Shown: positions 12,130 to 54,792, counted from the first letter of the stretch. The stretch is 64,000 bases of DNA from a virus (IMGVR_UViG_3300029094_000045); one strand, 5' to 3'. A program made the numbers and translations. The notes: a model not told the origin generated them from the sequence alone.

Positions 12130-12408
12130 TTACAAAAGGGACTCGCAGTAACAAGGCCCTGTTAATTGTTCTATTTTGTGCTCGATTTTAGTAATTCTAT
12201 CTTGTAGTTGTTCGATAATGGCTTCATATGGGTCTACTGTTGTTTTTATAGTGCCCGCATAACTCATTACAAATTGAGACATGTCATTCGCTCTGTTTAC
12301 ACGCTCGCAGGCGTTTTCAACAGTCTCTCGTGTTGTATGAATAAGATTATCTACAGTATCAAGTCTGGCGACAATATCTGGCACAATCGTTATTTCTGAT
12401 TCATCCAA
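12130..12408 (-). CDS. small protein of the ECxCxSLL C-terminal tail family (ends PCYCESLL)
   Basis: 92-aa ORF with a TAA stop; the C-terminal tail motif is shared with 16 other ORFs in the window. Confidence 0.5.
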   Translation of the reverse strand: MDESEITIVPDIVARLDTVDNLIHTTRETVENACERVNRANDMSQFVMSYAGTIKTTVDPYEAIIEQLQDRITKIEHKIEQLTGPCYCESLL

Positions 12409-12423
12409 AATTCTTACCTCCTG

Positions 12424-12609
12424 TTATAGCAGACTTTTGCAAATACAGCTGTTCATGTATTTATTTATCAGTTCAAAGTATCGTTTGTACATTCTTTCGG
12501 CAAATGGACCATAGAGTTTCTGTCCGAATCGTTTACCCTCTAATATAAGGGACACACTTCTATTTACTATAAAAGTCCTTGGTGGCTCACCATATTGGTG
12601 CATTGTCAT
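12424..12609 (-). CDS. small protein of the ECxCxSLL tail family (ends NSCICKSLL)
   Basis: 61-aa ORF carrying the shared tail. Confidence 0.45.
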   Translation of the reverse strand: MTMHQYGEPPRTFIVNRSVSLILEGKRFGQKLYGPFAERMYKRYFELINKYMNSCICKSLL

Positions 12610-12752
12610 TTTTTCTTCATCTATATCAAACCTGAAGTCCTCAAATTTTATTTTTCACTCTTCTTCAATCTCGTTATGTAATTGCATGGCCGCATCTGAC
12701 ATTGCAATTTCCAAGATTTCGTCGTCGAATTTGCTTTCACGAACATATTTAC

Positions 12753-13295
12753 TCATAATAGACTTCTACATACACATTCAGACTGTGCTTCTTCCATCGC
12801 TTGACGAATCACGTCGTTTAAACACTCTGGGATGATATGAAAGGGTTTGAAATTGTTAAACTCGTTCGCAGCCATTATGTTAAAGATGTTTGTAAATCTC
12901 ATTTTCTCTTCTGAAATATATCGAGCGTCTTCTTCGCCATATAGCGGCACAAGCGCTTTAAAAAATTTCATAGAATCAACCTGCCCCAAACATTCATCAA
13001 AGTAGAAGATCGTATATTCTACGCCGAATTTGACCTTATCGAACTTTTGCCAAAATTCATCAGGGGATTTACAAATCACGGTCACTTTTCGATGCTTCTG
13101 CGTAGAATTTAATCCTTCGTACCACGCACATACCGGGTCATAATTGTTTGGATGTACGAATAAAACACGCATATGTTCTTCTCCTTCATAAAGTCTTCTT
13201 GGGTATCGATACTGCGAACCGTATACTAGTGTTCTGGCTTTGTTGTCAATTCTATGTTTATATTTATTGAACAAATTACGTATTCTATCAATCAT
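12753..13295 (-). CDS. 180-aa protein of the ECxCxSLL tail family (ends SECVCRSLL); N-domain differs from the other members
   Basis: Carries the shared tail. Confidence 0.5.
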   Translation of the reverse strand: MIDRIRNLFNKYKHRIDNKARTLVYGSQYRYPRRLYEGEEHMRVLFVHPNNYDPVCAWYEGLNSTQKHRKVTVICKSPDEFWQKFDKVKFGVEYTIFYFDECLGQVDSMKFFKALVPLYGEEDARYISEEKMRFTNIFNIMAANEFNNFKPFHIIPECLNDVIRQAMEEAQSECVCRSLL

Positions 13296-13756
13296 ATCAA
13301 GCTATCACACACGCATTCATCCTGTGGCACTTTTTGAGACGTAGTTGGTGGTGTAAGCACAACTTCGCTCGGGTCATAAGTGACCATAGAACAAGCAGCA
13401 ATTTGGATATCTGGGAAACACATAAACTGAAAACAACGATCAATGTCGTCAACAACAAGCGGCTTGTTTTCTAGATGCAATCCACGATAATGATCGAGAA
13501 ATTCACTTGCCACTAATATATAGATCTTATATTCTCCACGTTCTCTACTTTGTAAATCCACTACAAAACATTGATGGTTAATACTATATCCATAATATTG
13601 AACACCCAAGGCGCTAGCGATTTCTTTTATGTAATCTTGCGCACACCGAACGGCAGTGTTGCGTGTCGGCACTAAGATGTTACAGTTGTTCTTGACAGCG
13701 TATTTGCAAACTCGATAAGTGCGCCCTCCACCACGCGGCGTTAATATTCGTTCCAA
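13292..13756 (-). CDS. 154-aa protein of the tail family (ends DECVCDSLI)
   Basis: Carries the shared tail with an L-to-I change at the last residue. Confidence 0.5.
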   Translation of the reverse strand: MERILTPRGGGRTYRVCKYAVKNNCNILVPTRNTAVRCAQDYIKEIASALGVQYYGYSINHQCFVVDLQSRERGEYKIYILVASEFLDHYRGLHLENKPLVVDDIDRCFQFMCFPDIQIAACSMVTYDPSEVVLTPPTTSQKVPQDECVCDSLI

Positions 13757-13770: not shown

Positions 13771-14007
13771 TTATAACAGTGATTGACATATGCATTCATT
13801 TTCGGATTCGGGATAGTAGGGAATTGGACAATCGTATTGAGCTGCACGTCGATCTTCAGAGCAATTTCCTGGATGAAGTATCTGTCGTGGATGAAAACGT
13901 AGGTCATGGCCAAGCTCCCAGCGGAATCCTTGATAGTCGAACCAGATAGTATCTTGACTTTTGCTCAGAGCATCATATAGATTGTTTATCACAGCATCAA
14001 ATGTCAT
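13771..14007 (-). CDS. 78-aa protein of the tail family (ends NECICQSLL)
   Basis: Carries the shared tail. Confidence 0.5.
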   Translation of the reverse strand: MTFDAVINNLYDALSKSQDTIWFDYQGFRWELGHDLRFHPRQILHPGNCSEDRRAAQYDCPIPYYPESENECICQSLL

Positions 14008-34222: not shown

Positions 34223-34270
34223 AAACCGATGTCGAGAGGCGTGCGGGTTCAAGTCCCGCTGGTAGCACCA
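34185..34270 (+). tRNA. tRNA-Leu (anticodon TAA), type II, CCA encoded
   Basis: Acceptor gctacca/tggtagc; D stem gcg/cgc with a 12-nt loop; anticodon stem tcggt/accga; loop cTTAAAa; 13-nt variable arm; T arm gcggg-TTCAAGT-cccgc; A-CCA. Confidence 0.65.
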
Positions 34271-35228: not shown

Positions 35229-35633
35229 ATGGGAGGTAAGACCAGTCGCGATAGTCGCGAAAGGTACAATAAAAAAACATACGATCGAATCAACCTGATG
35301 ATTAGGAAAGATTCGCCGATCAACAAAGATTGTATCGCAAAGGAAGCGCAACGTGAAGGGAAGAGCTTGACAGGTTATATCCTTGATGCTGTTTGTGATC
35401 ACATCGAAAGAGAGAAACAACTCGAAAATTTTCCTACTTGTCCAGAATCTAATCTTGAGCCTCCGAAGGTTTTTGATGAGAACGGTTTGAGATACGAACT
35501 CAACTATCGTGAAATGTGTTGTCTCCTTTATAAGGCATTGAGGGATGACCCAAATCTGACAGAAGGTATGAGAAAATCACTCATTGGAATTATTCGTCAG
35601 ATGCACGACACCTTGATTGACGTTTCGTGGTGA
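35229..35633 (+). CDS. ribbon-helix-helix (CopG/Arc-like) DNA-binding protein
   Basis: N-terminal SRERYNKKTYDRINLMIRKD...KSLTGYILDAV has the RHH pattern. Confidence 0.35.
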   Translation: MGGKTSRDSRERYNKKTYDRINLMIRKDSPINKDCIAKEAQREGKSLTGYILDAVCDHIEREKQLENFPTCPESNLEPPKVFDENGLRYELNYREMCCLLYKALRDDPNLTEGMRKSLIGIIRQMHDTLIDVSW

Positions 35634-35893
35634 GCCCAATGGAAAGAAAGTTCAAATATGGAGACATTGTGGTACTCGATGGAGACATTGTCCACGAGGA
35701 AGACACTAATCACAATATCTCGGGTAGAGTGGTTGGATATTCTTTTAATCCATTCGAAAGTTGTCCCACCGTAGAAGTATTTACTCCATTTAAGTTTGGA
35801 GAGAAAAGACTTTCTACAGTAGATTTCCTTGGTGACGATTGGTGGAGACTAGTCAAAGAACCGACCGAGTGCTACTGCGAATCATTGCTTTAA
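35627..35893 (+). CDS. ECxCxSLL tail-family protein (ends EPTECYCESLL)
   Basis: 88 aa; KYGDIVVLDGDIVHEE resembles the PGD-V-x-R-DL start of the tandem family. Confidence 0.5.
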   Translation: MVSPMERKFKYGDIVVLDGDIVHEEDTNHNISGRVVGYSFNPFESCPTVEVFTPFKFGEKRLSTVDFLGDDWWRLVKEPTECYCESLL

Positions 35894-36567: not shown

Positions 36568-36706
36568 GAGCTCCGCTGAGTAAGCGTTAAGCGCCGCTAT
36601 GGTTCCACGCCGGATGTTCCAGAGCAATACGTCCGGCATTCGTTAAGATGATTCGTCAAATGACGTTTCTACAATAATTTTTCAAATTGAAGAGGAGATA
36701 CATAAT

Positions 36707-36943: not shown

Positions 36944-37097
36944 TTCTGGGCGAATTTAAAATCCGAATGTAAATCTGTTTTTGGTTACAACAGATAAATA
37001 GCATTGCAGCCGCTGGCAGGCCGGTTAAAGTCTGCCTTATATATGTCCAGTATCTGGGCTTGATAATGCAATCACAAATTTTAAGGAGGAAGTTTAT

Positions 37098-38573: not shown

Positions 38574-38587
38574 AGGAGGTTTGATTT

Positions 38588-39499
38588 ATGCAGCCCATTA
38601 AAATGACTGACGAAATTATTCGCGATGTTATGCAGGAGTTCTACAGTCAGGCTTCTGTTCTCGGTAATCTCCAGACGGATAAATTTTCTTTCAATAAGAG
38701 CTTCTCTAAGCCAGCTAAAGACGCCGTTGAGGTGAATTTCACGCTAGAAGCTTACCATGAAATGTGTGCGCTGATTGACCATTTTTCGACTGAAGTTGCG
38801 TGGCATGGCCTGGTGAAGCGCCTTGATAAGACGCATTTCCAGGTCACAAAAATCCTGATTTATCCTCAGAAGGTGACTGGTGCCACCGTAAATACTGATC
38901 AAGAGGAGTATACCAAGTGGCTTTATGCTCTCAAAGATGAAGAGTTTAATGCAGTTCGTTTTCAGGGACATAGTCATGTAAATATGGCTACTAATCCTAG
39001 CGGTGTTGATATGCAGAATCAGTGGGATATGATCAATCAGCTCAATTCTACTGATTACTATATCTTTATGATTTGGAACAAGCGCCGTGAATACAATGTT
39101 CGCGTAATTGATATGGCTGACAATGTTATCTACAGCGGCAGCGATGTCAAGGTGACTATTGGAGCTCTTGATATGAAAGGGTTTCTCGAAGAGGCAGAAG
39201 CGCTCGTCAAAAAGCCGACACCTGTGTACAACTATGGTACCACCTACGGATCAAACGCAAGAACTTATCCGGGAGGCTCATTCGTTGGTACGACTAGCAC
39301 CGCAACCACAAAGTCGGCAGAAAAGACAGAAACGGAAGCATCGAACCCGGCGCTGAAGACTGTCACCGGTGCTGCAGCTCCCAAGGTGAATAAGGAGAAT
39401 GAGTCTAATCTCATGGGGTACTACAAGAAAAATCCGAACGAGTTGTTGGCCAATTGGAATTCTAGTTGTCTACCTTATGAGGATGCTCTGTCGAATTAA
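38588..39499 (+). CDS. JAB/MPN+ (JAMM) metalloprotease domain protein
   Basis: Exact JAMM signature FQGHSHVNMATNPSGVDMQN (HxHx7Sx2D), with upstream Glu candidates. Confidence 0.65.
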   Translation: MQPIKMTDEIIRDVMQEFYSQASVLGNLQTDKFSFNKSFSKPAKDAVEVNFTLEAYHEMCALIDHFSTEVAWHGLVKRLDKTHFQVTKILIYPQKVTGATVNTDQEEYTKWLYALKDEEFNAVRFQGHSHVNMATNPSGVDMQNQWDMINQLNSTDYYIFMIWNKRREYNVRVIDMADNVIYSGSDVKVTIGALDMKGFLEEAEALVKKPTPVYNYGTTYGSNARTYPGGSFVGTTSTATTKSAEKTETEASNPALKTVTGAAAPKVNKENESNLMGYYKKNPNELLANWNSSCLPYEDALSN

Positions 39500-39516
39500 G
39501 AAAGGAAAATGCACAA

Positions 39517-40197
39517 ATGGATTTGAGTAAGATTGAGATGATTTTTGACCCCGCATCTGTTAAGGGGCGCATTCATATCATCGGCTGTGGTTCGGTCGGT
39601 TCTACTGTGGCTGAACTGTTGGCACGATATGGTTTGACCAAATTCACTCTGTGGGACATGGACTTTGTTGAACCGAAGAATATCGTCAATCAGATGTTCT
39701 TCCAGCAGGATATCGCTCATCCCAAGGTTGAGGCTGTGGGCAACATCCTGTGTAATGTGAATCCTGATATCAAAGAGGACCTGGTTCTGATGCCCAATGG
39801 TTGGCAGGGCGAAACTGTTAAGGGTTACGTGTTCTTGGCGGTGGACAATATCGAGATTCGCCAGCAGTTCTTGGAGAAGAACAAGTACAACATCGATTTA
39901 CTCGGGGTGTTCGACATTCGGACGGGTCTCTATGATGCGCAGTGTTGGTCGGCCGACTGGAAGGATCGTAAGCAGATTGAAAACCTAAAGCGTTCCATGG
40001 CATTCACTCATGAAGAGGCCAAGGCGGCTACGCCGGTATCTGCTTGTGGCGTCGTTCAGGGCGTTGCTCCGACCGTTCGTTTCATCTGCTGTCTGGCAGT
40101 TACGAACTTCATCAATTTCGCGGAAGGCAAGCCGCTGAAGAAGCAGATCGTTGCAACCCCGTTTATTCTGGGTGAAGAGAGCGTCATGGCGTTCTGA
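39517..40197 (+). CDS. E1-like adenylyltransferase of the ThiF/MoeB/UBA family
   Basis: IHIIGCGSVGS (GxGxxG Rossmann); WDMDFVEPKNIVNQMF (D-D-VE-SNL-RQ region); HPKVEAVGNILCNVNPDI; VFLAVDNIEIRQ. Collinear with ThiF/MoeB. 226 aa, with no C-terminal CxxC or rhodanese domain. Confidence 0.7.
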   Translation: MDLSKIEMIFDPASVKGRIHIIGCGSVGSTVAELLARYGLTKFTLWDMDFVEPKNIVNQMFFQQDIAHPKVEAVGNILCNVNPDIKEDLVLMPNGWQGETVKGYVFLAVDNIEIRQQFLEKNKYNIDLLGVFDIRTGLYDAQCWSADWKDRKQIENLKRSMAFTHEEAKAATPVSACGVVQGVAPTVRFICCLAVTNFINFAEGKPLKKQIVATPFILGEESVMAF

Positions 40198-40218
40198 TAA
40201 AATCGCAAATAAATAATC

Positions 40219-40476
40219 GTGATGAATAGTTGCTCTTTTATAAGCAATGCACTCAGGTTAAACCGAGTGTGACGAATTGTCAGGACGAGGTACCCCAGAA
40301 GGGAGGGCACGTGCGCGTGCCATGACGCTCGTCACCTGGTGAATTACGAGGCCACCTCGAAAATGCGAACCAAATACAACGATGAGACGTAGCAGCAAAC
40401 GCGGCCGTGATCTAACGTGCCGGCTAACAAGGCTAACAGAGCTCAGCGGATGCAGGAACCAACCTGTTTAGATCAC
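40219..40476 (+). ncRNA. conserved structured non-coding element, copy B, directly upstream of the RT gene
   Basis: Homologous blocks with copy A. Stem cactc/gagtg at 40250..40269. Internal palindrome ggcacgtgcgcgtgcc. Ends ~30 nt before the RT start codon. Confidence 0.4.
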
Positions 40477-40505
40477 GATTTTTTAAATTACATAAGGAGA
40501 AATAT

Positions 40506-41738
40506 ATGTACATCACATATTGGAATCCGCCTAATACACGGCAGATTACTTTTGATGAAATCATCGCAGGCGTACAGAATGTTGAAGCGCTGCATTATGG
40601 CGGCAGCACCACCTCGACGATTACGGTGTGTCGTAATGACCTTACTCCGCGCCTGCAGAAAATCACCAATATCCCAGATATGATCGCAAAACTTACGGAG
40701 TTTAATCAGAAATATGCAGGACTCGAAGCGTGCGACCTCGCTGCTCATTATGAACATTTTGAGATTCCTAAGAAGTCCGGCGGCTGGCGTCCTATCGATG
40801 CTCCGGATAAGGAATTGTCTGATGCTCTGGTTGAGCTGCGCGAATTACTTCACAGCTTCATGATCGCAGACTATCACACAAATGCTTTTGCTTATATTCC
40901 GAATCGTAGTTTTATCGACGCAGTCCGCAAACATCAGGCTGGTCACATTAAAACGAAAAAGAATGAAGAAACCGGAATACAGACGACAGTGACTTTTGAA
41001 AATCACTGGGCAGTGAAGTTTGACTTGCATGGATTCTTTCCGAGCACAACGCCGGATTTTCTTCTTGGGATGTTGAGCATTATTTATCCGTTCGCTCTGA
41101 TTATGAAGGATGAACGGGGGCACGAACAGCTTGCCAACGCCTTAAAACTTTGTTTCCTCCACGGTGGTTTGCCGCAGGGGACGCCTATCAGTCCATGGCT
41201 TACCAATGTTATGATGATTCCATTTGATCATCTTATCACGCGCAAGCTGTGTTACGGCTATAAGGCAAAAGACGGTATCGAACGTGAATTTACCTATACC
41301 CGTTACGCTGACGATATGATGTTTAGTTGTTATCACAGTTTTGACCCGATGGAGATCCAGCAAATCGTCATCGATGGTTTGAACTTCATCCATGCACCAT
41401 TTACTTTAAATGAAGCAAAAACTCATTACGGCAACCGCCATTCCAGTAAAAACTGGTGCCTTGGTTTGATGTGGAACAAGGATAACCAGATCACTGTTGG
41501 ATGGCGAAATCTGAAGATGTTTCGGTCTGCCATGAAAAACTACATTGATGCGAAAAAGCGTGGCGAAACGTGGGAGCTTGAAGATCTTCAGTCGTTTATG
41601 GGCAAGCTTAATTACTATCATATGGTCGAACCCGATGTAATTGATGATTTGGTTCATCGTTACAATGAAAAATTTGGTGTTGATGTGATGGCTATGCTCA
41701 AAGACGATCTTCGTCTTAAAGATGGCGAAGCCGCGTAA
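40506..41738 (+). CDS. reverse transcriptase of retron/group-II type
   Basis: RT motifs in order: IPKKSGGWRPIDAP (1/2), FDLHGFFPS (A), GLPQGTPISPWLTNVMM (B'), YTRYADDMMFS (C, YxDD), then an LG region. QGxxxSP plus RYADD is retron/group II-like rather than DGR-like (IGxxxSQ). Confidence 0.7.
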   Translation: MYITYWNPPNTRQITFDEIIAGVQNVEALHYGGSTTSTITVCRNDLTPRLQKITNIPDMIAKLTEFNQKYAGLEACDLAAHYEHFEIPKKSGGWRPIDAPDKELSDALVELRELLHSFMIADYHTNAFAYIPNRSFIDAVRKHQAGHIKTKKNEETGIQTTVTFENHWAVKFDLHGFFPSTTPDFLLGMLSIIYPFALIMKDERGHEQLANALKLCFLHGGLPQGTPISPWLTNVMMIPFDHLITRKLCYGYKAKDGIEREFTYTRYADDMMFSCYHSFDPMEIQQIVIDGLNFIHAPFTLNEAKTHYGNRHSSKNWCLGLMWNKDNQITVGWRNLKMFRSAMKNYIDAKKRGETWELEDLQSFMGKLNYYHMVEPDVIDDLVHRYNEKFGVDVMAMLKDDLRLKDGEAA

Positions 41739-42893: not shown

Positions 42894-43163
42894 ATGGAGT
42901 CGATAATGTATAAGCCGGGTGATAGAGTTACGATTCGTTCGGATTTGGAAGAGTACGAATGTTACTGTATGTTGTCTGGCCCCAAAAAAGAGAAAGGAAT
43001 GTTCTGCACCGTGCCGAGCATGGTTGCACAGGCCGGGAAAGTACTTACAATCGAAAAAATTCTAGAAGACGGAAGAGGTTATCAGCTTAAAGGATGTAAT
43101 CTCGGTTGGACGGATTCTATGTTTGAGTCAGCAAATGAATGTATTTGCGATTCGCTGCTGTGA
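42894..43163 (+). CDS. tandem-family paralog 1 (PGDRVxIRxDL...WTDxMFE...ECICDSLL)
   Basis: 89 aa. It carries the N-terminal domain shared by the 11 tandem paralogs and the family's C-terminal tail. Confidence 0.55.
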   Translation: MESIMYKPGDRVTIRSDLEEYECYCMLSGPKKEKGMFCTVPSMVAQAGKVLTIEKILEDGRGYQLKGCNLGWTDSMFESANECICDSLL

Positions 43164-43172
43164 GGTATTGAG

Positions 43173-43442
43173 ATGAAATATTTCCACGATATTGGTGATG
43201 CGGTTGTCGTAAAATCCGATCTTCATACTGGTATTGATTATTACATGAAGTCTGGTCCGGAAACTCCAATATATAATAATGTCACCGAGGAAATGAAAAA
43301 GTATGCTGGTAAAATTGTTCACATTGCGGACCACATAAACGGGCAGTATTTGATTAAAGAAGACGATTGTGAATGGATATGGACAGATGACATGTTCGAG
43401 AATGTTTCGGATGAGGAATGTTTTTGTGTGAGCCTGTTATGA
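43173..43442 (+). CDS. tandem-family paralog 2 (ends EECFCVSLL)
   Basis: Carries the shared N-domain and tail. Confidence 0.55.
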   Translation: MKYFHDIGDAVVVKSDLHTGIDYYMKSGPETPIYNNVTEEMKKYAGKIVHIADHINGQYLIKEDDCEWIWTDDMFENVSDEECFCVSLL

Positions 43443-43460
43443 TAGAAAGGGTGAGATAAA

Positions 43461-44285
43461 ATGGCCGAAGCTGTTAAAAGGAAAAAATATGAAAAGTTGG
43501 TCCAATTCCCCAAAGTCTCTGATAGCACTCACTTCACCATGAGTGAAGAAGAACTTCAGAAGATGATTCGGGATATTGCGGCTGCGGCTCAGAAGTCTAG
43601 AAAGCGTAAACCTAAACCTACATATAGTCTCTATACGAAGGATGGACGCAGAAAGCCCACGCCAGCCGATCCGATTCGTTCGAAAGAAGATTTCTGGAAA
43701 CTGGCTGATTATTTGGGTTCTACTGGAGATCCTAAATTCCAGCTGCGGAATAAGACGATTTTTATTTTTGGCTGTAGTATCGGCGTTCGCTGCGGCGATT
43801 TGTTGAACCTAAAAACAGGAGATGTTTATGAGGCGAATGGTTCGGTGAAAGAACATCTCGAACTAATGGAAGAAAAAACGCGCAAAATCAACGTTTGTAA
43901 AATTCCCAAAATGGCCGTGGATGTTCTGGAACAGTATCGTGATGAACAGAAATTCTCTATCGATCAGCAGAATTATCTATTCCGCAGCCGTAAAAATGGT
44001 TCTCTAAATGTGCGCAGTTTCTATCACATCTTGAAGAACGCAGGCAAAGTATGCGGGCTGGATATTGACCTGTCTACTCATACGATGCGTAAAACTTATG
44101 CAATGGCAGCTCTTCAAACAGCAGATGGAACAGAGGCGTCTGGCGATACGTTGGAGTTGCTTCAGGTGAAATTCAAACACAGTGATAAGCGCGTTACTAT
44201 GCGATACATTAAGGCGGATCAGGATAAAATCGATAAGATGTCCAATCGCGTTTCAGAATGGTTTGAGGATGGAGGAACTAAATGA
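43461..44285 (+). CDS. tyrosine recombinase (integrase-family catalytic domain only), embedded in the paralog array
   Basis: Box I GVRCGDLLNLK; box II LSTHTMRKTYA (HxxR); catalytic Tyr in KRVTMRYIK. 274 aa with no N-terminal arm-binding domain. Its stop overlaps the start of paralog 3. Confidence 0.6.
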   Translation: MAEAVKRKKYEKLVQFPKVSDSTHFTMSEEELQKMIRDIAAAAQKSRKRKPKPTYSLYTKDGRRKPTPADPIRSKEDFWKLADYLGSTGDPKFQLRNKTIFIFGCSIGVRCGDLLNLKTGDVYEANGSVKEHLELMEEKTRKINVCKIPKMAVDVLEQYRDEQKFSIDQQNYLFRSRKNGSLNVRSFYHILKNAGKVCGLDIDLSTHTMRKTYAMAALQTADGTEASGDTLELLQVKFKHSDKRVTMRYIKADQDKIDKMSNRVSEWFEDGGTK

Positions 44286-44551
44286 CGGATTATTTATATC
44301 ATCCCGGCGATAGGGTTTATGTTCGACCTGATCTTACGGATACTGAAGAGTATAAAATGTTGTCTGGGAAAAGTGAAGGCGAGTCTTGGGGAATCTACTC
44401 TTGGATGAAGAACTACGCAGGAAAAGAGATTGTTATTCTAAAAATTGAATTAGCCCGTGGCGTTTACACAGCACAAGGAATTAATGGCTGCATTTGGTCT
44501 GATGAAATGTTTGAGCCTCTAAACGAATGTTTCTGCGGCTCGTTATTATGA
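44282..44551 (+). CDS. tandem-family paralog 3 (ends NECFCGSLL)
   Basis: Carries the shared N-domain and tail. Confidence 0.55.
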   Translation: MTDYLYHPGDRVYVRPDLTDTEEYKMLSGKSEGESWGIYSWMKNYAGKEIVILKIELARGVYTAQGINGCIWSDEMFEPLNECFCGSLL

Positions 44552-44561
44552 GGACCTGTAA

Positions 44562-44843
44562 ATGAAGAACACCAAAAAATATATGTATCAACCCGGAGAC
44601 ATTGTTATTGTTCGAAAGGATTTAGATAAATATAAAAGCTACAAAATGTTTGCTGGCCCATATAAAGATAAAACATGGGGCATTCATCCGGATATGTGCC
44701 TTATGAGGGGACAAGCGGTTCATATTTCTGGGATTCATGAATATGGTGCTTATTTGATTTCGGAAACTGATGAATTTGTTTGGACAGATGAGATGTTTTC
44801 TGGATTAGCATACAATGAATGTTGTTGTAATTCGCTACTATAA
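44562..44843 (+). CDS. tandem-family paralog 4 (ends NECCCNSLL)
   Basis: Carries the shared N-domain and tail. Confidence 0.55.
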   Translation: MKNTKKYMYQPGDIVIVRKDLDKYKSYKMFAGPYKDKTWGIHPDMCLMRGQAVHISGIHEYGAYLISETDEFVWTDEMFSGLAYNECCCNSLL

Positions 44844-44867
44844 AATTAAACGACGGGGGAGATAGAA

Positions 44868-45143
44868 ATGGCATCGAGGTATTATCGATATAAAAACGGA
44901 GAAGAGGTTATTGTTCGTGCTGATTTAGATTATAATACTCGTTATTATATGCGTTCTGGTTATCGAGCTGACGAACAGTATACAATGCTTAGCTATGGCC
45001 AATCTCAGAAATTAGGAAAACCTGTACATATCAAAGACAAACGAGGTGGGCGATACATTATTGAAGAAGACTACGGCGGTTCTGCTTGGACTGACGATAT
45101 GTTTGAGTCTTCGAATGAATGTTGTTGCAGTTCTTTGCTGTGA
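44868..45143 (+). CDS. tandem-family paralog 5 (ends NECCCSSLL)
   Basis: Carries the shared N-domain and tail. Confidence 0.55.
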   Translation: MASRYYRYKNGEEVIVRADLDYNTRYYMRSGYRADEQYTMLSYGQSQKLGKPVHIKDKRGGRYIIEEDYGGSAWTDDMFESSNECCCSSLL

Positions 45144-45151
45144 GGTGTGAA

Positions 45152-45445
45152 ATGACAAAAGAATATCTTTATAACGTCGGAGATGTTGTAAGAATCCGCG
45201 AGGGGCTTGATCAGAATGAGTCTTATCGTATGCAGTCCGGCCCTTCGGATGGCTATAATCCCGGAATTAATAAATCTATGACAAGGCGCGGCGGAGAAGT
45301 TCATATGATACTGGGTTATGCCGCCTTGGGTTGTTATCATATCGACGATAACCCTAACGCAAAAGATTCTCATGGAAATTGGAGTTGGGCCGATGAAATG
45401 TTAGAACCTGTAGAGAATGGGTGCTACTGCGAGAGTTTGTTGTGA
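45152..45445 (+). CDS. tandem-family paralog 6 (ends NGCYCESLL)
   Basis: Start taken at the ATG of MTKEYLYN, after GAGGTG. Carries the shared N-domain and tail. Confidence 0.55.
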   Translation: MTKEYLYNVGDVVRIREGLDQNESYRMQSGPSDGYNPGINKSMTRRGGEVHMILGYAALGCYHIDDNPNAKDSHGNWSWADEMLEPVENGCYCESLL

Positions 45446-45453
45446 GGTGTGAT

Positions 45454-45723
45454 ATGAGTGAACTTCTATATAAGCTGGGTGACAAGGTTACAATCCGTTC
45501 TGATTTGAAAGAGGGCACACTGTATCCTGTTTTGTACGGACCAGCTGCTATCAAGAAAACTCTTTATTGCAGTCCTGGTATGGCAAAGCTTAGAGGCGAG
45601 ACTTTTGAAATCGACCGGTATACCTTCGATGGAAAGTTTTACAGATTGAAGGGAGTCGATTGGAACTGGACAGAGTCTGTGTTTGAAGATCCAAAAGAGT
45701 GCTTCTGTGAAAGTTTGTTATGA
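45454..45723 (+). CDS. tandem-family paralog 7 (ends KECFCESLL)
   Basis: Start taken at MSELLYKLGDKV. Carries the shared N-domain and tail. Confidence 0.55.
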   Translation: MSELLYKLGDKVTIRSDLKEGTLYPVLYGPAAIKKTLYCSPGMAKLRGETFEIDRYTFDGKFYRLKGVDWNWTESVFEDPKECFCESLL

Positions 45724-46003
45724 GGTATCAATGTGAAAGAGATATGGTGTGTTATTGAATCTAGCTCTGAAGGCGAGGTTTTTAGCCCCGATTTTTTCAA
45801 TTCAAAAGAAAAAGCAGTAGAATTTATCGAAGAAGAGACGAAAGAGTGTCTAGCTAATATGATGGATCTTCCAGAAGCTGGTAGGATGACGGATATCGTT
45901 GATGGAGATCCGATTGGTGAGGTGTGGACTGATAAATATAGTTGGGTATGGCATGGTTTTGAAGTTACTAAAGAAATTAAAAATATTTTAAAGGAGAATA
46001 ACA

Positions 46004-48070
46004 ATGTCTGACTTTAAGGAATTTCGTGCGCTGCTGCAGGACCACTTCAATGAGATGGTGAAGGATGGCGCACCTCTGTTTATCACCAATGCAGACGAGG
46101 ATAAGCTATATGGTCTCTATTTGGACAGCTTCCCGGCTGGTACGAACTCCATCTTCCGTAAGCGGCGTGAGTATGATTGCTCCTGCTGCCGTCGTTTCGT
46201 AAAGAATATTGGTAAGCTGGTTTCCTTTATGGATGGTCAGATGGTCACCGTCTGGGATTTCGATACCAAGTCCGACGTTTATCAGCCGGTTGTGGATGCG
46301 CTGGCTACTTATGTGAAAACCTGCGCTGTTGTGAATCCGTATTATGTTAGCCGCAATATGATCTCTGATGGCAAGTTCGGCACGGAGATGAACTATGAGT
46401 ATGATGCTAATCATAAGGCGGTTCACACCTGGGATCATTTCGCTGTCGAGATTCCTCAGCGGTTCATTGTCAATTCCTGTGATGTGACTACCAAGATGGC
46501 CGAGTGGCGTGATTCTGCTAATGTGTTCAAGCGTTCTCTGGAGGAGCTGACCATGGGTGCCGTGGACACCGTACTTGAGCTGATTGCGCAGAACAGCCTG
46601 TATCGCGGCAAGGAGTTTGAATCTCTGGTTCGTGGCTTCAAAATCGATAAGCGAGCGTATGATCGTCTGCCTGATGAAAAGAAGTCCGCTTATGTTTGGA
46701 TGGCTCCCGGCGGTGCGTCGATGAACCGGCTTCGTATTCGTAACACCGCTATCGGCACCCTTCTTATCAATTTGAGCGAAGGTATGGATGTGGATTCCGC
46801 CGTTACCGCCTTTGAGAAGGTTGTCGCTCCTGCCAATTATAAGCGTCCCAAAGCTATTTTCACTAAGAAGATGCTGGAAGATGCACAGAAAACCGTTACT
46901 GAACTGGGTTACATGAACAGTCTGGGTCGCCGATTTGCCACTCTGGATGATATTACTGCCAACAATATTCTGTTCTGCAACCGCGATGCCGCTCCTCGTG
47001 TGCTTGGCGCTATGAATCCGTTTGAAGCAATGGCTAAGACTGTTGCGATTGATCCCAAGAAGTTTGGCCGTGCAGAAGAAATTGGCATCGACAAGTTCAT
47101 CAAGGATGTACTGCCGACTGCGGCTGGCTTAGAACTGTTCATGGAGAATCGGTTCGAAAAGAATATGATGTCTCTGATTGCTCCGCAGGATAAAAATGCG
47201 CCGTCTATGTTCAAGTGGGCAAATGGATTCAGTTGGGCGTATACAGGTAACATGACTGACAGCCAGATTCGAGAGAACGTCAAGGCTGCTGGCGGCAAGG
47301 TGGATGGCGTGCTGCGTTTCTCGATCCAGTGGAACGATGTGCCGGGTGAATGGGATGAAAACGATGAGGATGCTCATTGCATTGAACCTGGTAAGAATCA
47401 TATCTATTATGGCAATAAGTGGAATCCTCGTACTAATGGCCGCCTAGATGTTGATATCCGTTGTCCTAATCAGGGTAAAGCTGCGGTCGAGAATATCACC
47501 TGGCCTGACATCAAAAAGATGAAGGAAGGCGAGTACAGCTTCTATGTAAACTGCTACGCTAATCGTGGTGGTAAAACTGGTTTCCGGGCTGAAATCGAGT
47601 TCGATGGCAACATCTACTCTTTCAACTACGATAAGCCGCTGCATGGTGGTCAGAATGTCGCCGTGGCAAAAGTCACGCTGAAGGACGGCAAGTTCTCTAT
47701 CAAGGAGCTGCTGCCCAGTTCTACCAGCACCCGCGAGATCTGGGGTGTGAATTCCAATCAGTTCGTACCTGTGTCTGTGGCGATGTACTCTCCGAACTAC
47801 TGGGACGAACAGACCGGCAATGGCAATCGTCACTACTTCTTCATGCTCAAGGATTGCGTCAACCCTGAAAAGCCGAACGGATTTTACAACGAATTCCTGA
47901 AGGCGGAATTGCTACAGCATAAGCGAGTATTTGAGGCGCTGGGTTCTCAGATGGCAGTTCAGTCGGTGGACGATCAGCTGTCTGGTGTTGGTTTCTCTGA
48001 GACTCAGCACAACAGCTTTATTGTTAAAGTGCAAGGGGCAACGGAGCGAGTTCTGAAAGTGGTGATTTGA
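46004..48070 (+). CDS. 688-aa hypothetical protein inserted within the paralog array
   Basis: Long ORF with an RBS and no recognisable motif. Its stop overlaps the start of paralog 8 (TGATG). Confidence 0.45.
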   Translation: MSDFKEFRALLQDHFNEMVKDGAPLFITNADEDKLYGLYLDSFPAGTNSIFRKRREYDCSCCRRFVKNIGKLVSFMDGQMVTVWDFDTKSDVYQPVVDALATYVKTCAVVNPYYVSRNMISDGKFGTEMNYEYDANHKAVHTWDHFAVEIPQRFIVNSCDVTTKMAEWRDSANVFKRSLEELTMGAVDTVLELIAQNSLYRGKEFESLVRGFKIDKRAYDRLPDEKKSAYVWMAPGGASMNRLRIRNTAIGTLLINLSEGMDVDSAVTAFEKVVAPANYKRPKAIFTKKMLEDAQKTVTELGYMNSLGRRFATLDDITANNILFCNRDAAPRVLGAMNPFEAMAKTVAIDPKKFGRAEEIGIDKFIKDVLPTAAGLELFMENRFEKNMMSLIAPQDKNAPSMFKWANGFSWAYTGNMTDSQIRENVKAAGGKVDGVLRFSIQWNDVPGEWDENDEDAHCIEPGKNHIYYGNKWNPRTNGRLDVDIRCPNQGKAAVENITWPDIKKMKEGEYSFYVNCYANRGGKTGFRAEIEFDGNIYSFNYDKPLHGGQNVAVAKVTLKDGKFSIKELLPSSTSTREIWGVNSNQFVPVSVAMYSPNYWDEQTGNGNRHYFFMLKDCVNPEKPNGFYNEFLKAELLQHKRVFEALGSQMAVQSVDDQLSGVGFSETQHNSFIVKVQGATERVLKVVI

Positions 48071-48342
48071 TGGAACTTAAATATCATGTCGGCGATAAGG
48101 TTATGATTCGTCCGGATCTTAAAGCGGGCAAAGTGTGTGAGATGTATTCGGGACCAATGCGTGGACGATATACTTACAGTATCACACCTAGTATGACACA
48201 GTTGGTTGGTAAATTTGCTACGATTGAAAGAATTTGTGATGGGGGAACTGGATATAGACTTAAAGAATATGGTTTCTCATGGACCGATGGAATGCTGCTG
48301 CCGGCTGATTTAAACGAGTGCGTTTGTGCTTCGCTGTTGTGA
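48067..48342 (+). CDS. tandem-family paralog 8 (ends NECVCASLL)
   Basis: Carries the shared N-domain and tail. Confidence 0.55.
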   Translation: MMELKYHVGDKVMIRPDLKAGKVCEMYSGPMRGRYTYSITPSMTQLVGKFATIERICDGGTGYRLKEYGFSWTDGMLLPADLNECVCASLL

Positions 48343-48351
48343 GGTGGTCTG

Positions 48352-48627
48352 ATGAAATATCGATACGAACCCGAAGACGCAGTTTTTGTTCGGCCTGATT
48401 TGAAACGTGGCTCCAACTATTGGATGCGTTCTGGGGTGAATGAAAATAAGCAATGTCTTGTAGCTGTTGGTGATATGTTAAATTTCGTAGGTAAAATGGT
48501 TCATATTTCTGGATATTCTCGGGATGGTTTTTATTACATCAAAGAAGATCCGGGGCAATGGTGCTGGACTGATGAGATGTTCGTTGGTCTAGCTGGCAAT
48601 GAGTGCTACTGCGAATCTCTGCTGTGA
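48352..48627 (+). CDS. tandem-family paralog 9 (ends NECYCESLL)
   Basis: Carries the shared N-domain and tail. Confidence 0.55.
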   Translation: MKYRYEPEDAVFVRPDLKRGSNYWMRSGVNENKQCLVAVGDMLNFVGKMVHISGYSRDGFYYIKEDPGQWCWTDEMFVGLAGNECYCESLL

Positions 48628-48635
48628 GGTGCCAA

Positions 48636-48911
48636 ATGGACTATCGGTACAAAATAGGAGAGGCTGTTTGGGTTAGAGACGACCTCGAATATGCAGCCTC
48701 TTATGATATGACGCCTGGCCCTTATCCAAAAGGCAATCGTAATGTCGTGACAGATAAAATGGCCAAACTCCATGGGCGGCTTGTCCATATTAAAAATTAT
48801 TCTGCTGCCGGCCAATATTATGTGGAAGAAACAAATAGTCTTCAATGGACCGACGATATGTTTGAAGGCTCAGAAAATAATAATGAATGCCTCTGCGAAT
48901 CTCTACTGTGA
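48636..48911 (+). CDS. tandem-family paralog 10 (ends NECLCESLL)
   Basis: Start taken at MDYRYKIGEAVWV. Carries the shared N-domain and tail. Confidence 0.55.
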   Translation: MDYRYKIGEAVWVRDDLEYAASYDMTPGPYPKGNRNVVTDKMAKLHGRLVHIKNYSAAGQYYVEETNSLQWTDDMFEGSENNNECLCESLL

Positions 48912-48919
48912 GGCTTGTT

Positions 48920-49207
48920 ATGGATTATGTAATTCCACTTCGATTTAAGCCTGGCGATCATGTTGTGGTTCGTCCGGATTTGAATATCAATACGGTCTAT
49001 CAAACATTTGGAGGCAAGAATGCCGGTTATCGTACAGCCCCAACGATGAATATGGTTCGCTTTGCGGGAATGGAATCTGAGATTAAAGAGTATTCTAGGT
49101 CTCAAAAAACTGTAAAACTGAAGTACTGTGGTTTTTGTTGGACAGAACAAATGCTGATTCCCAAAAGTTTTGTAGAACAGGAATGTGTTTGTGAATCACT
49201 TTTATAA
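48920..49207 (+). CDS. tandem-family paralog 11 (ends QECVCESLL)
   Basis: Start taken at MDYVIPLRFKPGDHVVV. Carries the shared N-domain and tail. Confidence 0.55.
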   Translation: MDYVIPLRFKPGDHVVVRPDLNINTVYQTFGGKNAGYRTAPTMNMVRFAGMESEIKEYSRSQKTVKLKYCGFCWTEQMLIPKSFVEQECVCESLL

Positions 49208-50736: not shown

Positions 50737-51564
50737 ATGGTCAAAGCAAATCATTATGAAATCAGTTCTTTCCCTGATGGCACCCCACTGATCAAGAAGG
50801 ATCTGACTATCAATTATCTCAATGTGATCAGTATCGTCTGGACATTTGAATCCATGGCCGAACTTCCCACGGTCATTATGATCGCAAAGGACGCAAGGGA
50901 TAATGGGGCAGAAGTCGAACTGTTTATGCCGTATATTCCGAACGCTCGTATGGATCGCGTTCATAGTGGCGAGGATGTGTTCACCCTCAAGTGGTTTGCA
51001 GAGGAGATCAATCGATGTGAATTCAGCCGCGTTGTTGTATTTGATCCTCACAGTGATGTGGCTCCGGCTCTGATTGATCGTTGTGAGGTACGAACTCCGA
51101 TTCGTGAGATCTGTCAGGCAATCGAAGAAAGCAAGCCTGATGTGATTTACTTCCCGGATGCCGGCGCAATGAAACGATACGAGGAAACTGTTCACTGGGC
51201 ACTCGATCGTGTCGGTTGTAAGGCTTATATCATTCACGGAGACAAGAAGCGTGAGTGGAAGACCGGAAAGATTCTCGGTTTGGATGTCACCGGTTATCCT
51301 CCCAAGGGCGGCAAAGTTCTGATGATTGATGACATTTGCTCTTACGGAGGCACCATGTTCTATTCGGCTGAAAAGCTGAAGATGTTGGACGTTGGAGATA
51401 TTGATATGTATGTCAGTCATTGTGAGAACAGTATTCTGGACAAGGAGCGCGGTCATCTGTTTGACGACCCGGAGCTGATTCACAAGGTATATACCACGGA
51501 CAGTATCTTCACTGGCCATCACGACAAGATTACTGTATTAGAGCATCATTGGGATGAGGACTGA
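50737..51564 (+). CDS. ribose-phosphate pyrophosphokinase (Prs) family enzyme; candidate ADP-ribose pyrophosphate synthetase (Adps) of an NAD+ reconstitution pathway
   Basis: Collinear with Prs: FMPYIPNARMDR (Prs IPYFGYARQDR), VVVFDPHSD (Prs TVDLHA), VIYFPDAGAMKRYEE, and the PRPP-binding loop VLMIDDICSYGGTM (Prs VLVDDMIDTGGTL). Confidence 0.6.
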   Translation: MVKANHYEISSFPDGTPLIKKDLTINYLNVISIVWTFESMAELPTVIMIAKDARDNGAEVELFMPYIPNARMDRVHSGEDVFTLKWFAEEINRCEFSRVVVFDPHSDVAPALIDRCEVRTPIREICQAIEESKPDVIYFPDAGAMKRYEETVHWALDRVGCKAYIIHGDKKREWKTGKILGLDVTGYPPKGGKVLMIDDICSYGGTMFYSAEKLKMLDVGDIDMYVSHCENSILDKERGHLFDDPELIHKVYTTDSIFTGHHDKITVLEHHWDED

Positions 51565-51824
51565 CATGAAGCATGCAAAAGGTGAAATCCTTAGTGCATA
51601 TCAGCGCTTAACGAAAAGTATCAAATATGGAGATGCATACTGGTCTGAAAAAGCAATGATAAGTGATGCTCTGAGTGATTACTTCAATCGGATAGAGAGC
51701 AAGAAAGTCGTAATCGATCCAAAATATAAAAGCTACAGATGTCCAAAGTGCAATACAGCATTAATTGGTCAATATGATCACTACTGCGGACAATGTGGTC
51801 AGAAATTGGACTGGAGGATTAAAA

Positions 51825-53303
51825 ATGATCAATATTAACCCAATGCTGCTGTGTGACTTCTACAAGACAACTCACAGTAAGCAGTTTCCGGCCGGCACCA
51901 CCAAGCTGGTCAGTTACTTTACTCCTCGTATGAGCCGTCTGGATGGCGTGGATGAAGTCGTCGTGTTCGGCATTCAGGCATTCTGCAAGGATTATCTGGT
52001 GCAGTATTTCAATGACAACTTCTTCGACGAACCAAAGTGTATTGTAATTCCTCAGTATAAGCGATATCTGGATGCGACCATTGGCAAGGATGCTTACGAT
52101 CTGAGCAAGATTGCAGCACTACATGATCTGGGATATCTTCCTGTTGAAATCAAGGCTCTGCCAGAAGGTACTCGTTGCCCGATCCATGTGCCGTTCCTTG
52201 AGATGAGCAATACGCACCCTGATTTCGCATGGGTTCCGCAGTTCCTCGAATCTTTTACGAGTTCTGAGCTGTGGCATCCGATGATTTCTGCAACGGTCGG
52301 AACTCTGTATCGCGATATCGTGGACAAGTATTACGATGAAACCGTTGAAGAGGGTGTGCCCCATGCTCGTGCTCTGGGTGATTTCAGCTTCCGCGGTCAG
52401 GAGTGTATGCAGTCGGCAGTTAAGTCAAGCGCCGGTTGGTGTCTGAGTTTTCTGAATACGGCTACTGTACCTGCGATTCCGTATCTGGAAGAAATGTATC
52501 GCTGCAATTGTGAAGAAGAGCCTGTTGCGTTTGGCGCTGTTAGCACAGAGCATAGTGTGATGTGTTCTAACTTCGCAGTCGATGGCGATGAGATCACTTT
52601 CATCCGCCGGGCGCTGACTGAGCTGTATCCGAATATGAGTTTCAGTATGGTGTCTGATTCCTATGATTACTGGAATCTGGTCGATAATATTCTGCCGCAG
52701 CTCAAGGATGAAATCATGGCGCATAATGGCACGCTGCTGATTCGTGGCGACTCTGGTGACCCGGTCGAAATCGTTACGCAGACCGTCTATCATCTGTGGG
52801 ACATCTTCGGCGGCACAGTCAATAGCAAGGGTTATAAGGTGCTCGACCCTCATGTAAAGGCTCTGTATGGAGACTCTATTACTGTGCAGCGCTGTGAAAA
52901 GATTTATGCCGAACTCAAAGCACACGGTTTCGCCTGCAACAATGTAAGTCTCGGCGTTGGTTCCTTCTCCATGCAGTGTATTGAACAGAATGGGCAGCTG
53001 AAACCGTTCACCCGTGATACGTTCGGCATGGCAGTCAAGGCAACTTATGGCGTGGTTAACGGCAAGGAGATCCAGATCTTCAAAGACCCAAAGACCGATA
53101 CCGATCACTTCAAGAAAAGTCTGAAGGGTATGTGCTATGTCACCAAGGATGATTCTGGGAAGCTGATTTGCACAGATGGTCTGATGAATCATGCCGCGCA
53201 TTCGGATGGGAATCTTCTGCAGACCGTATTCCGTAATGGCGCGATGATCAAGGAGTACAGTCTGAAGGAAGTCCGCGACCGACTGTGGAAAGGGAAGTTT
53301 TAA
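51825..53303 (+). CDS. nadV: nicotinamide phosphoribosyltransferase (Nampt/NadV) family enzyme; candidate NadV or nicotinamide-ADPR transferase (Namat)
   Basis: Family signatures LLCDFYKTTHSKQFP, PVEIKALPEG, GDFSFRGQE, VSDSYDYWN, IRGDSGDPVE, KGYKVLDPHVKALYGDSIT match the Nampt blocks NTDSYK.TH, IKAVPEG, GYRG, VSDSYD, IRPDSG, KGYK..P...GDG. Start taken at the ATG at 51825 after GGAGG. Confidence 0.7.
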   Translation: MININPMLLCDFYKTTHSKQFPAGTTKLVSYFTPRMSRLDGVDEVVVFGIQAFCKDYLVQYFNDNFFDEPKCIVIPQYKRYLDATIGKDAYDLSKIAALHDLGYLPVEIKALPEGTRCPIHVPFLEMSNTHPDFAWVPQFLESFTSSELWHPMISATVGTLYRDIVDKYYDETVEEGVPHARALGDFSFRGQECMQSAVKSSAGWCLSFLNTATVPAIPYLEEMYRCNCEEEPVAFGAVSTEHSVMCSNFAVDGDEITFIRRALTELYPNMSFSMVSDSYDYWNLVDNILPQLKDEIMAHNGTLLIRGDSGDPVEIVTQTVYHLWDIFGGTVNSKGYKVLDPHVKALYGDSITVQRCEKIYAELKAHGFACNNVSLGVGSFSMQCIEQNGQLKPFTRDTFGMAVKATYGVVNGKEIQIFKDPKTDTDHFKKSLKGMCYVTKDDSGKLICTDGLMNHAAHSDGNLLQTVFRNGAMIKEYSLKEVRDRLWKGKF

Positions 53304-53537
53304 TGATTCTCGAAATTAGTGCCGAAACGGCGTGTGAAATAATCAGCCATCCACTGGAATCGTCTTCTGATAGATTTTGGCTGCAAGAAAATGACCGTTA
53401 TGTTGGAATCGATAATTCTGAGCATTCGGCATGGGTCGAAGACTTCTCCACAAAAGAAGAATGCCTTAATTGGCTCGAAGAGAATCAAAAAGATGACAAG
53501 TAACCAACAGAGATGCTGTCGAATCGAAGGTGAAAAC

Positions 53538-54011
53538 ATGGCAGTTGTTATCAAAGAAGGCAACGTATTTGATTCTGACGCAGACATTATCTGTCATCAG
53601 GTGAATTGTCAGGGCGTCATGGGGTCAGGCGTTGCTAAAGAAGTTCGCGAGCGTTATCCAGAAGTATATGCTCAGTATAAGTATCTATGTGATATAAATA
53701 AGGGTTATCCTGCCGGATTACTGGGAAAGGCACAAATCGTTTCGACTGACAACGTATTTTCTCGATATATCGCCAATTGTTTTGGCCAGGATAAATACGG
53801 TTATGATGGCGCTCAGTATACTTCAGTTGGTGCATTGATGGAAGCCCTGATTTATGTTGCAGAGCAGGCAAGGCAGTTTAACTGGAAGGTCGCTATGCCG
53901 TATAAAATCGGATGTGTCCGTGGTGGGGCTGATTGGGATACGGTTAAGAAAATAATCGATGTCACGTTTCAGGGTGTCGATGTAGAACTGTGGAAACTGG
54001 AGGGTAAATAA
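53538..54011 (+). CDS. macro domain protein (ADP-ribose binding/processing)
   Basis: VIKEGNVFDSDADIICHQVNCQGVMGSGVAKEV matches the macro-domain N-terminal Gly-rich ADP-ribose pocket (Gx(I/V)xxxxxDAIVNAAN...GGGVA pattern). Confidence 0.55.
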   Translation: MAVVIKEGNVFDSDADIICHQVNCQGVMGSGVAKEVRERYPEVYAQYKYLCDINKGYPAGLLGKAQIVSTDNVFSRYIANCFGQDKYGYDGAQYTSVGALMEALIYVAEQARQFNWKVAMPYKIGCVRGGADWDTVKKIIDVTFQGVDVELWKLEGK

Positions 54012-54012
54012 T

Positions 54013-54771: not shown

Positions 54772-54792
54772 GGCTGATTAAGGAGAATCATA

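Follow-up and report, generated by a model that had tools for sequence, protein, structure and literature searches.

The 64,000-nt stretch of viral DNA IMGVR_UViG_3300029094_000045, the whole of which we refer to as the window, encodes 17 proteins that close with a common C-terminal tail. In a six-frame scan of the window, 16 open reading frames (ORFs) end in C-x-C-x-S-L-L-stop and one ends in ECVCDSLI-stop; 11 of these genes lie in an array on the + strand (42894-49207), one lies apart on the same strand (35627-35893) and five lie on the - strand (12130-14007). The scan found no further ORF of at least 40 aa with this ending, and residue frequencies lead us to a rough estimate of fewer than 0.01 such endings expected by chance in the whole window. 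These are the same sites that a sequence-only reading of the window had reported, and the general form of its motif, E-C-x-C-x-S-L-L, stands. The motif is not invariant as that reading had it, since Glu(-8) is found in 14 of the 17 proteins (the rest have Gly, Pro or Ser) and one member ends in Ile, the other 16 keeping the final Leu. Most carriers are small and acidic. There are no Pfam or NCBIfam models for the carriers, and PHROGs places them in function-unknown families only. Our literature search found no description of such a motif, in line with the reading's statement that no described family has this architecture.

The array proteins are paralogues, 32-44% identical to the first member, and the tail is their best-conserved part. 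Members 1 and 2, each of 89 aa, lie at 42894..43163 (SH3_15-like domain; tail ..ANECICDSLL) and 43173..43442 (tail ..DEECFCVSLL; phrog_7488, E 4.8e-10). Members 3 to 7 follow at 44282..44551 (89 aa; ..LNECFCGSLL), 44562..44843 (93 aa; ..YNECCCNSLL), 44868..45143 (91 aa; ..SNECCCSSLL), 45152..45445 (97 aa from the ATG with Shine-Dalgarno spacing; ..ENGCYCESLL) and 45454..45723 (89 aa; ..PKECFCESLL), and members 8 to 11 at 48067..48342 (91 aa; ..LNECVCASLL), 48352..48627 (91 aa; ..GNECYCESLL), 48636..48911 (91 aa; ..NNECLCESLL) and 48920..49207 (95 aa; ..EQECVCESLL), all on the + strand. The array is thus present with its 11 members, but it is not one unbroken tandem run: it is interrupted by a tyrosine recombinase gene (43461-44285), a 92-aa ORF (45733-46011) and a gene for a 688-aa DUF8224 protein (46004-48070). 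The recombinase (+ strand, 274 aa) is short and Xer/invertase-like; it lies inside the array in every clade examined and is also found in a related locus, L158, whose region seen has no array. The claim that GAGGTG follows every array stop did not hold, a TGA-GGTG or TGA-GGTA junction directly at the stop being found in 7 of the 11 array genes. Fusion of the array genes through stop-codon recoding was ruled out, as the following ATG is out of frame and several stops are TAA.

The remaining six carriers fall into six groups without a BLAST link to one another or to the array family, so that the 17 N-terminal parts form seven unlinked groups, bearing out the proposal that the tail is fused to unrelated N-terminal domains. 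The separate + strand gene (35627..35893, 88 aa, cluster 4; tail ..PTECYCESLL) belongs to a second small-barrel-like family with an N-terminus reading ..FKYGDIVV... On the - strand, unrelated families are represented at 13771..14007 (78 aa, cluster 5; ..ENECICQSLL), 13292..13756 (154 aa, weak phrog_1828 match; ..QDECVCDSLI), 12753..13295 (180 aa, cluster 6; ..QSECVCRSLL) and 12424..12654 (61-76 aa, the start being uncertain, cluster 7; ..NSCICKSLL), together with a coiled-coil-like protein at 12130..12408 (92 aa, cluster 8; ..GPCYCESLL). For the 154-aa family, 50 of 54 homologues end in C/Y-x-C/F-x-S-L-[VIL], the other four comprising a truncated fragment and three divergent ends.

Conservation of the tail is at the level of the peptide and not of the DNA. 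At the invariant tail residues, codon heterozygosity was 0.53 for Cys (0.49 expected from window codon usage), 0.86 for Ser (0.79 expected) and 0.79-0.82 for Leu (0.78 expected), with both Cys codons, both the TCN and AGY classes of Ser codons and five Leu codons in use. The flanks of the tail (60 nt upstream and 30 nt downstream) show 29-32% ungapped nucleotide identity between members, which is random. The peptide-level conservation that had been claimed was therefore confirmed, with synonymous sites saturated; the picture that would have spoken against it, of flanking nucleotides conserved equally with the tail and no excess of synonymous change, was not what we found. Within the array region, the only direct-repeat families are the tail-coding stretch and the Shine-Dalgarno sequence, and repeat and codon analysis found no nucleotide conservation beyond the needs of the peptide of the kind left by a recombination site, an attC site or the variable and template repeats (VR/TR) of a diversity-generating retroelement (DGR). 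Because codons are scrambled and flanks are random, conservation acts on the peptide and is not that of a duplication remnant or a DNA site, and selection on the tail at the peptide level is shown here.

Array member 9, modelled with AlphaFold2 (AF2) from an 88-sequence alignment, gave a predicted local distance difference test score (pLDDT) of 91.4 overall and above 94 for residues 1-80, which form an SH3-like barrel. The pLDDT falls to about 50 in the tail, the final two blocks of ten residues scoring 57 and 49, and the model shows the tail as a disordered appendix outside the fold. The PDB entry whose fold matches the model best is 4tse (Mib repeat of Mind bomb 1; E 0.058, probability 0.98), and viral proteins in BFVD named "Mind bomb SH3 repeat domain" match it at E 7e-5 to 1.5e-4; the array family profile reaches MIB1 in the PDB at E 0.065. 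The window array proteins have no Pfam match at E<=0.01, and multi-repeat relatives retrieved with the same array profile score 30-38 bits against SH3_15, for which the cut-off is 24 bits. We conclude from these structural predictions that the 11 array carriers are, in all likelihood, single Mind-bomb-type SH3 repeats of the Pfam SH3_15 superfamily.

An exhaustive profile search returned 3864 cluster representatives of the array domain (E<=1e-3) from phages and metagenomes, many of them with two to six tandem copies fused to diverse C-terminal domains such as DUF7566 or a DnaJ-type CxxCxGxG domain. We counted architectures among the 150 best of the 3864 representatives, 142 of which were newly retrieved and inspected. 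Among these 142, the tail is present in 51 of 53 stand-alone proteins (81-114 aa) and in none of 89 longer proteins, most of which have several domain repeats; in this sample the tag evidently goes with the stand-alone architecture. Only one GenBank phage record, which is unannotated, contains the array family, and no cultured phage record does.

To place the tail in a wider setting, we compared related phage loci (denoted L) that share a gene order of a 141-aa protein, a putative ubiquitin-like protein (Ubl), a 491-aa protein, a JAB peptidase, an E1-like enzyme, a retron-type reverse transcriptase (RT), an integrase and the array. Of 7117 ORFs in about 1.1 Mb of related phage loci, 528 end in SLL, far more than in any other tripeptide, and 330 unique tail proteins there sort into nine groups without a BLAST link. 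The tails occur in lineage-specific forms, which we call dialects. Dialect A, [N/D]-E-C-Φ-C-[acidic/polar]-S-L-L (Φ, hydrophobic), is that of the window and its close relatives; dialect B, [K/R]-[K/R]-x-[F/L/C]-x-C-[R/K/H]-S-L-L, is found in L156, L289-291, L352 and about 25 second-operon loci, in which it stands on 5-8 unrelated proteins per locus; dialect C, G-Φ-x-F-x-S-L-L, is found in L154, L288 and L235; dialect D, ..L-F-H-G-F-F and also F-K-P-I-F, in L159; and dialect E, S-[I/P]-x-[F/L/Y]-x-x-L-[L/V], in L157. In a census of 60 operon loci (59 related loci and the window's own segment), recognisable tails were present in 58, with up to 14 tail proteins each, and each tail-bearing locus keeps essentially to a single one of dialects A to D. 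In four A-type loci, one or two members with Lys or Arg at -4 were called B by our rough classifier.

The uniformity within a genome extends across unrelated genes. All of the 12-14 tails in L154 and in L288 read Φ-x-F-x-SLL, and on contig 127729 dialect C is carried both by 12 array proteins (L288) and by seven non-SH3 proteins about 26 kb away (L235). Distant relatives of the 154-aa family likewise bear dialects B and C. Gene conversion does not account for the uniformity, since the tails of these other dialects have scrambled codons as well. The flanking charge is uniform in each genome and opposite between dialects A (acidic, N-E...[E/D]) and B (basic, K-K...[R/K/H]); such a reversal fits a receptor of complementary charge and argues against self-association of the tails and against membrane binding. 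These sequence comparisons show that the tag is modular and that each genome uses essentially one dialect, A and B being opposite in charge.

Across dialects the general form of the tail is Φ(-7)-x-Φ(-5)-x-small/polar(-3)-Φ(-2)-Φ(-1)-COOH, always at the extreme C-terminus and with Leu, Ile, Val, Phe or Met as each of the last two residues. Within dialect A, Cys(-7) is frequently Tyr, Cys(-5) occasionally Tyr and Ser(-3) is Pro in 90 ORFs, and in other clades Cys(-7) becomes Ile, Val, Leu, Met or Phe and Cys(-5) becomes Phe. These replacements show the cysteines to be dispensable. Since whole dialects replace them genome-wide, the cysteines probably serve as hydrophobic contacts and not in metal, thioester or disulfide chemistry, and the suggestion that the Cys pair forms a zinc knuckle, a thioester site or a cyclisation point is not sustained by substitutions that occur both as variants and as whole clades. 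The tail had also been described as a class-I PDZ ligand (x-[S/T]-x-Φ-COOH), and the [E/D]-S-L-L-COOH of the window does match that pattern exactly, as does the DSLL of the beta2-adrenergic receptor. In relatives, however, Ser(-3) is replaced by Pro, Gly (L159), Gln (L157), Asn, Thr or Met, and no PDZ domain was matched among about 50 window proteins scanned against Pfam; bacterial PDZ proteins, moreover, are mostly outside the cytoplasm. A tail whose Ser tolerates exchange for Pro, Gly or Gln is unlikely to engage a PDZ domain in the canonical class-I manner.

To look for the tail outside this phage lineage, we scanned 185,579 species genomes; the scan gave 32 matches, about the number in our rough chance estimate, of which only three are real: one phage-like contig in a Peptococcaceae metagenome-assembled genome (MAG) and two Faecalibacterium MAG contigs. 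On the latter two, from uncultured Faecalibacterium, a ribbon-helix-helix (RHH)-like protein of 138-157 aa ends ..ANEC[IV]C[QE]SLL (L127, 6845-7318, -; L147, 14-430, +), and in L147 its gene adjoins a tyrosine integrase and housekeeping genes. The N-terminus of this RHH-like protein matches a 62-aa phage protein that has no tail (L156, 7837-8025), so the tail can be gained or lost.

We favour, with moderate confidence, the explanation that the tail serves as a modular docking peptide at the C-terminus, recognised by one shared receptor that evolves together with it. The tail would act as a free, unstructured C-terminal short linear motif, polar(-8)-Φ(-7)-x-Φ(-5)-x-[S/P/G/Q](-3)-Φ(-2)-Φ(-1)-COOH, allowing many small stand-alone accessory proteins to dock in a single receptor pocket that co-evolves with the tag. 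Hydrophobic contacts would be made by both cysteines, the serine and the final leucines, lined up along one side of an extended strand or brought together in a Φ-x-x-Φ-Φ helical turn, while residues -4, -8 and -9 would set a charge that the receptor matches. In relatives the SH3 repeats are covalently fused, and in this lineage the tag may replace the covalent link. We infer a single receptor, more probably encoded by the phage than by the host, and docking could, for example, serve to bring bound host targets to a common machine. The partner would be something other than the SH3 domain itself, because the domain has no clade-specific change that tracks the dialect, at least in an alignment of five clades judged by eye; a head-to-tail polymer with the SH3 domain as receptor was rejected on the same lack of dialect-specific residues, and AF2 docks no tail in cis.

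Tails that share a hydrophobic C-terminal peptide for one hub pocket have precedents in T4 gp43, gp33 and gp55, which bind the gp45 clamp, in the bacterial QL[SD]LF motif and in the PIP box. The tails described here differ in having no conserved Gln, with a Cys or Phe followed by a polar or charged residue at the positions of QL[SD]LF; they are also borne by far more proteins (17), none recognisable as a replication or transcription protein, and the window is without a clamp gene.

Several observations weigh against a docking peptide with a co-evolving receptor. No receptor was found among the candidates considered. A charge-complementarity scan of ten syntenic neighbours (the 141-aa, putative Ubl, 491-aa, JAB, E1, RT, 129-aa, integrase, DUF8224 and 127-aa proteins) for columns basic in A and acidic in B returned one column, K202 of the 491-aa protein, and was uninformative. 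The dialects could follow different hosts and not a phage receptor. Moreover, the clades differ in everything, and each dialect may go back to one ancestral switch, kept by phylogenetic inertia; uniformity across non-homologous genes nonetheless calls for selection as its explanation. Two candidate receptors were set aside as unlikely: DUF8224, because the tail-bearing loci L157 and L159 lack it in their array regions, and the AAA ATPase downstream of the array, a Herelleviridae-type core gene product about 45% identical to Enterococcus phage homologues, as the array protein is unmatched in cultured phages.

More specific versions of the docking model, and alternatives to it, can be ranked by how well they accord with these data. 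The best of them, which we still regard as unlikely, is that the tail is a C-degron or protease tether, in which a host AAA+ protease or adaptor of the ClpXP, ClpCP or FtsH type would read the nonpolar C-terminus, so that the tail proteins are short-lived or deliver the cargo bound by their N-terminal domains in the manner of an SspB tail. ClpX, FtsH and Tsp are known to recognise nonpolar C-terminal tails, and the tail resembles the ssrA tag (..LAA) and the SspB tail in being a disordered, hydrophobic peptide at the very end of the chain; its two final residues are hydrophobic in all dialects, giving a nonpolar end with a free carboxylate, as in an ssrA-like C-degron. The small acidic carriers also lie among genes of counter-defence type (NAD salvage, macro domain). 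The tail sequence itself, however, is unlike canonical ..LAA tags and unlike the phage's own transfer-messenger RNA (tmRNA) tag (ANNNSYRCAA), and host proteases, being conserved, would not readily account for substitutions at -5 and -7 that differ between genomes or for the reversed charge at -4, -8 and -9. The adjacent phage AAA ATPase is unlikely to supply a dedicated partner either, being the core gene product noted above.

Slightly less probable again is a virion packaging or ejection signal, by which the tail would dock on capsid, portal or scaffold and the proteins would be injected with the DNA. Here the parallel is the capsid targeting sequence (CTS) of T4, a short N-terminal peptide on internal proteins that is cut by the prohead protease. 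The T4 system has hyper-variable arrays of small genes sharing one short terminal peptide, and the two are alike in placing a short terminal peptide, a modular address label outside the fold, on diverse, fast-evolving small accessory proteins of a large phage. A phage-encoded structural receptor would naturally co-evolve with its tag, and LPD18, a domain typical of injected polyvalent proteins, is encoded just upstream. In contrast to the T4 peptide, the tail is at the extreme C-terminus and has no protease-site or cleavage signature, and its carriers are mostly acidic, the T4 internal proteins being basic. The structural proteins of the window neither bear nor resemble the tail, and the tail genes lie in accessory operons away from the structural genes.

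The third version involves the operon upstream of the array (36142-40197, +), which resembles a ubiquitin-like conjugation system inside a phage. After the opening 141-aa protein, it encodes the putative Ubl (36707-36943, +; 78 aa, ending ..KMDNA-LAA), the 491-aa protein (37098-38573, +), which has weak E2/RWD-like fold matches and a coiled coil, a JAB/JAMM peptidase of 303 aa (38588-39499, +; JAMM motif HSHVNMATNPSGVD; PADLOC JAB match, E 1.4e-4) and a ThiF/Cap2-type E1, an E1-like adenylase of 226 aa (39517-40197, +). The putative Ubl is so labelled from its size, its position in the operon and its conserved C-terminus; Pfam yields nothing for it, hhalign does not match it significantly to MoaD or ubiquitin, and a beta-grasp fold thus has no confirmation from sequence. 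Across six clades this small protein (75-83 aa) has an invariant K-x-D-N-A end with 0-3 extra residues, the pattern expected of the operon's own Ubl and hence of a candidate E1 substrate.

The tail proteins might be interchangeable substrate receptors of this machine (Ubl, 491-aa protein, JAB and E1), a version that we consider improbable, a shade more so than packaging. The SH3 modules would each take a host target of their own, such as a defence factor, and the tail would dock each module on an E2/RWD-like hub, giving an expandable receptor repertoire and a phage counterpart of the F-box/PRANC adaptors. Poxvirus ankyrin proteins with F-box-like PRANC domains, F-box proteins and SOCS-box proteins also combine variable target-binding modules with a constant C-terminal docking element, and here the variable part is a Mind-bomb REP/SH3-type module, which in an E3 ligase binds substrates. 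In place of their folded box of 40-50 residues, however, the present proteins would dock through a disordered peptide of eight residues.

It is very doubtful that the tails instead bind one another, through a beta-zipper, disulfides or a shared metal, and assemble the proteins into one multi-protein particle with no separate receptor. Mutual matching of tails would also yield genome-wide dialects, and stand-alone repeats do take the place of fused multi-repeat proteins; but all tails of a genome have the same charge, acidic in A and basic in B, and like charges repel. The cysteines are dispensable as well, and the strict placing at the extreme C-terminus suggests recognition of the carboxylate itself.

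Marginally less credible still is the sequence-only reading's idea that the tail is a substrate signal of the co-encoded E1 (39517-40197), the C-terminal Leu being activated for conjugation, thioester formation or cyclisation. In each of the five tail-bearing clades examined, the array is indeed preceded directly by the operon of putative Ubl, 491-aa protein, JAB and E1, and if the carboxylate were activated, Cys(-5) could in principle close a five-residue thiolactone of the kind found in Agr autoinducing peptides. Several findings speak against the claim: the E1 remains 66-78% identical across clades although the tails differ completely (..CESLL, ..FQSLL, ..FHGFF, ..FNQLL); Cys(-5) is Phe in dialects C and D; the operon holds its own candidate substrate, with 0-3 removable residues after K-x-D-N-A and a JAB peptidase beside it; and L158 keeps the E1 operon with no tail proteins within the 18.7 kb seen. 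Nor do the carriers resemble Ubl-type substrates, as their N-terminal domains are SH3-like barrels or other folds and not beta-grasp folds, and their tails end in Leu-Leu or Phe-Phe. E1 and 491-aa matches that were missing for some contigs are false negatives of the pattern method and were not used as evidence.

Finally, the tail could be read as a neutral duplication remnant or as a DNA element, such as a translational-coupling signal, an attC-like sequence or a recombination target of the tyrosine recombinase embedded in the array. The tandem arrangement, the recombinase and the TGA-GGTG junctions in part of the array might speak for this reading, but for practical purposes it is refuted by the codon analysis; the same peptide ends unrelated genes on the opposite strand, no direct-repeat family reaches past the coding tail and Shine-Dalgarno sequence, and other genomes hold their dialects at the peptide level.

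If the docking-peptide explanation is right, these phages would offer a rare clear phage case of a genome-wide short linear motif system, in which one 8-residue C-terminal tag marks 10-20 otherwise unrelated accessory proteins per genome and lineage dialects shift in concert. It would imply a hidden hub that orders much of the accessory, probably counter-defence, proteome of abundant ~140-kb human-gut phages. Compared with the principle of the CTS or of F-box/PRANC adaptors, what is new here are the position, size, sequence and dialect behaviour of the tag. A genome's own tail could provide a simple sequence test for network members in uncultured phages, and the dialects look like naturally orthogonal tag/receptor pairs, with possible use in engineering.

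The window shares 92% identity with MT835544, a "Bacteriophage sp." record from human faeces that carries no annotation; related contigs span 70-150 kb, and the phage genome is about 140 kb. It encodes a T4-type terminase (large subunit 1089-2639, -) and PhoH (14626-15981, -). Strong Shine-Dalgarno sites and the RHH-tail gene in Faecalibacterium MAG contigs hint at an Oscillospiraceae host. Downstream of the array, an island of NAD+ salvage and counter-defence type (50737-55365, +) encodes a phosphoribosyl pyrophosphate (PRPP)-binding protein of 275 aa, NAMPT (51765-53303, +), a macro domain protein (53391-54011, +), NAD synthase (54013-54771, +) and an isochorismatase/nicotinamidase (54793-55365, +).

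Next to the E1 gene, the region at 40198-41738 (+) encodes the retron-type RT (NCBIfam retron St85, E 2.5e-41, below the curated cut-off; PADLOC RT_II-A, E 4e-37). A 310-nt non-coding stretch precedes the RT, and 50 nt of this stretch (40246-40295) have a second copy of 82% identity ahead of a Bro-N gene (27437-27486). The two copies, which lie outside the tail genes, differ mainly by transitions at C, T and G and not in the adenine-specific manner of a DGR; the repeat could represent a regulatory element or a non-coding RNA.

Elsewhere in the window, an 852-aa protein (7921-10479, -) matches the eukaryotic-type RNA-dependent RNA polymerase family PF05183 (E 3e-12) and corresponds to a YonO-like single-subunit RNA polymerase. 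A tmRNA lies at 29472-29858 (+; Rfam RF00023, 93.6 bits against a gathering score of 47), and the tag that ARAGORN assigns to it, ANNNSYRCAA, does not match the SLL tail, so the tmRNA was rejected as its source. Seven tRNA genes (Pro, Met, three Leu and two Gly) are found at 29204-34270, and a type-P5 twister ribozyme (RF02684) is matched at 22298-22376 (+) with 50.7 bits, against a gathering score of 37.6.

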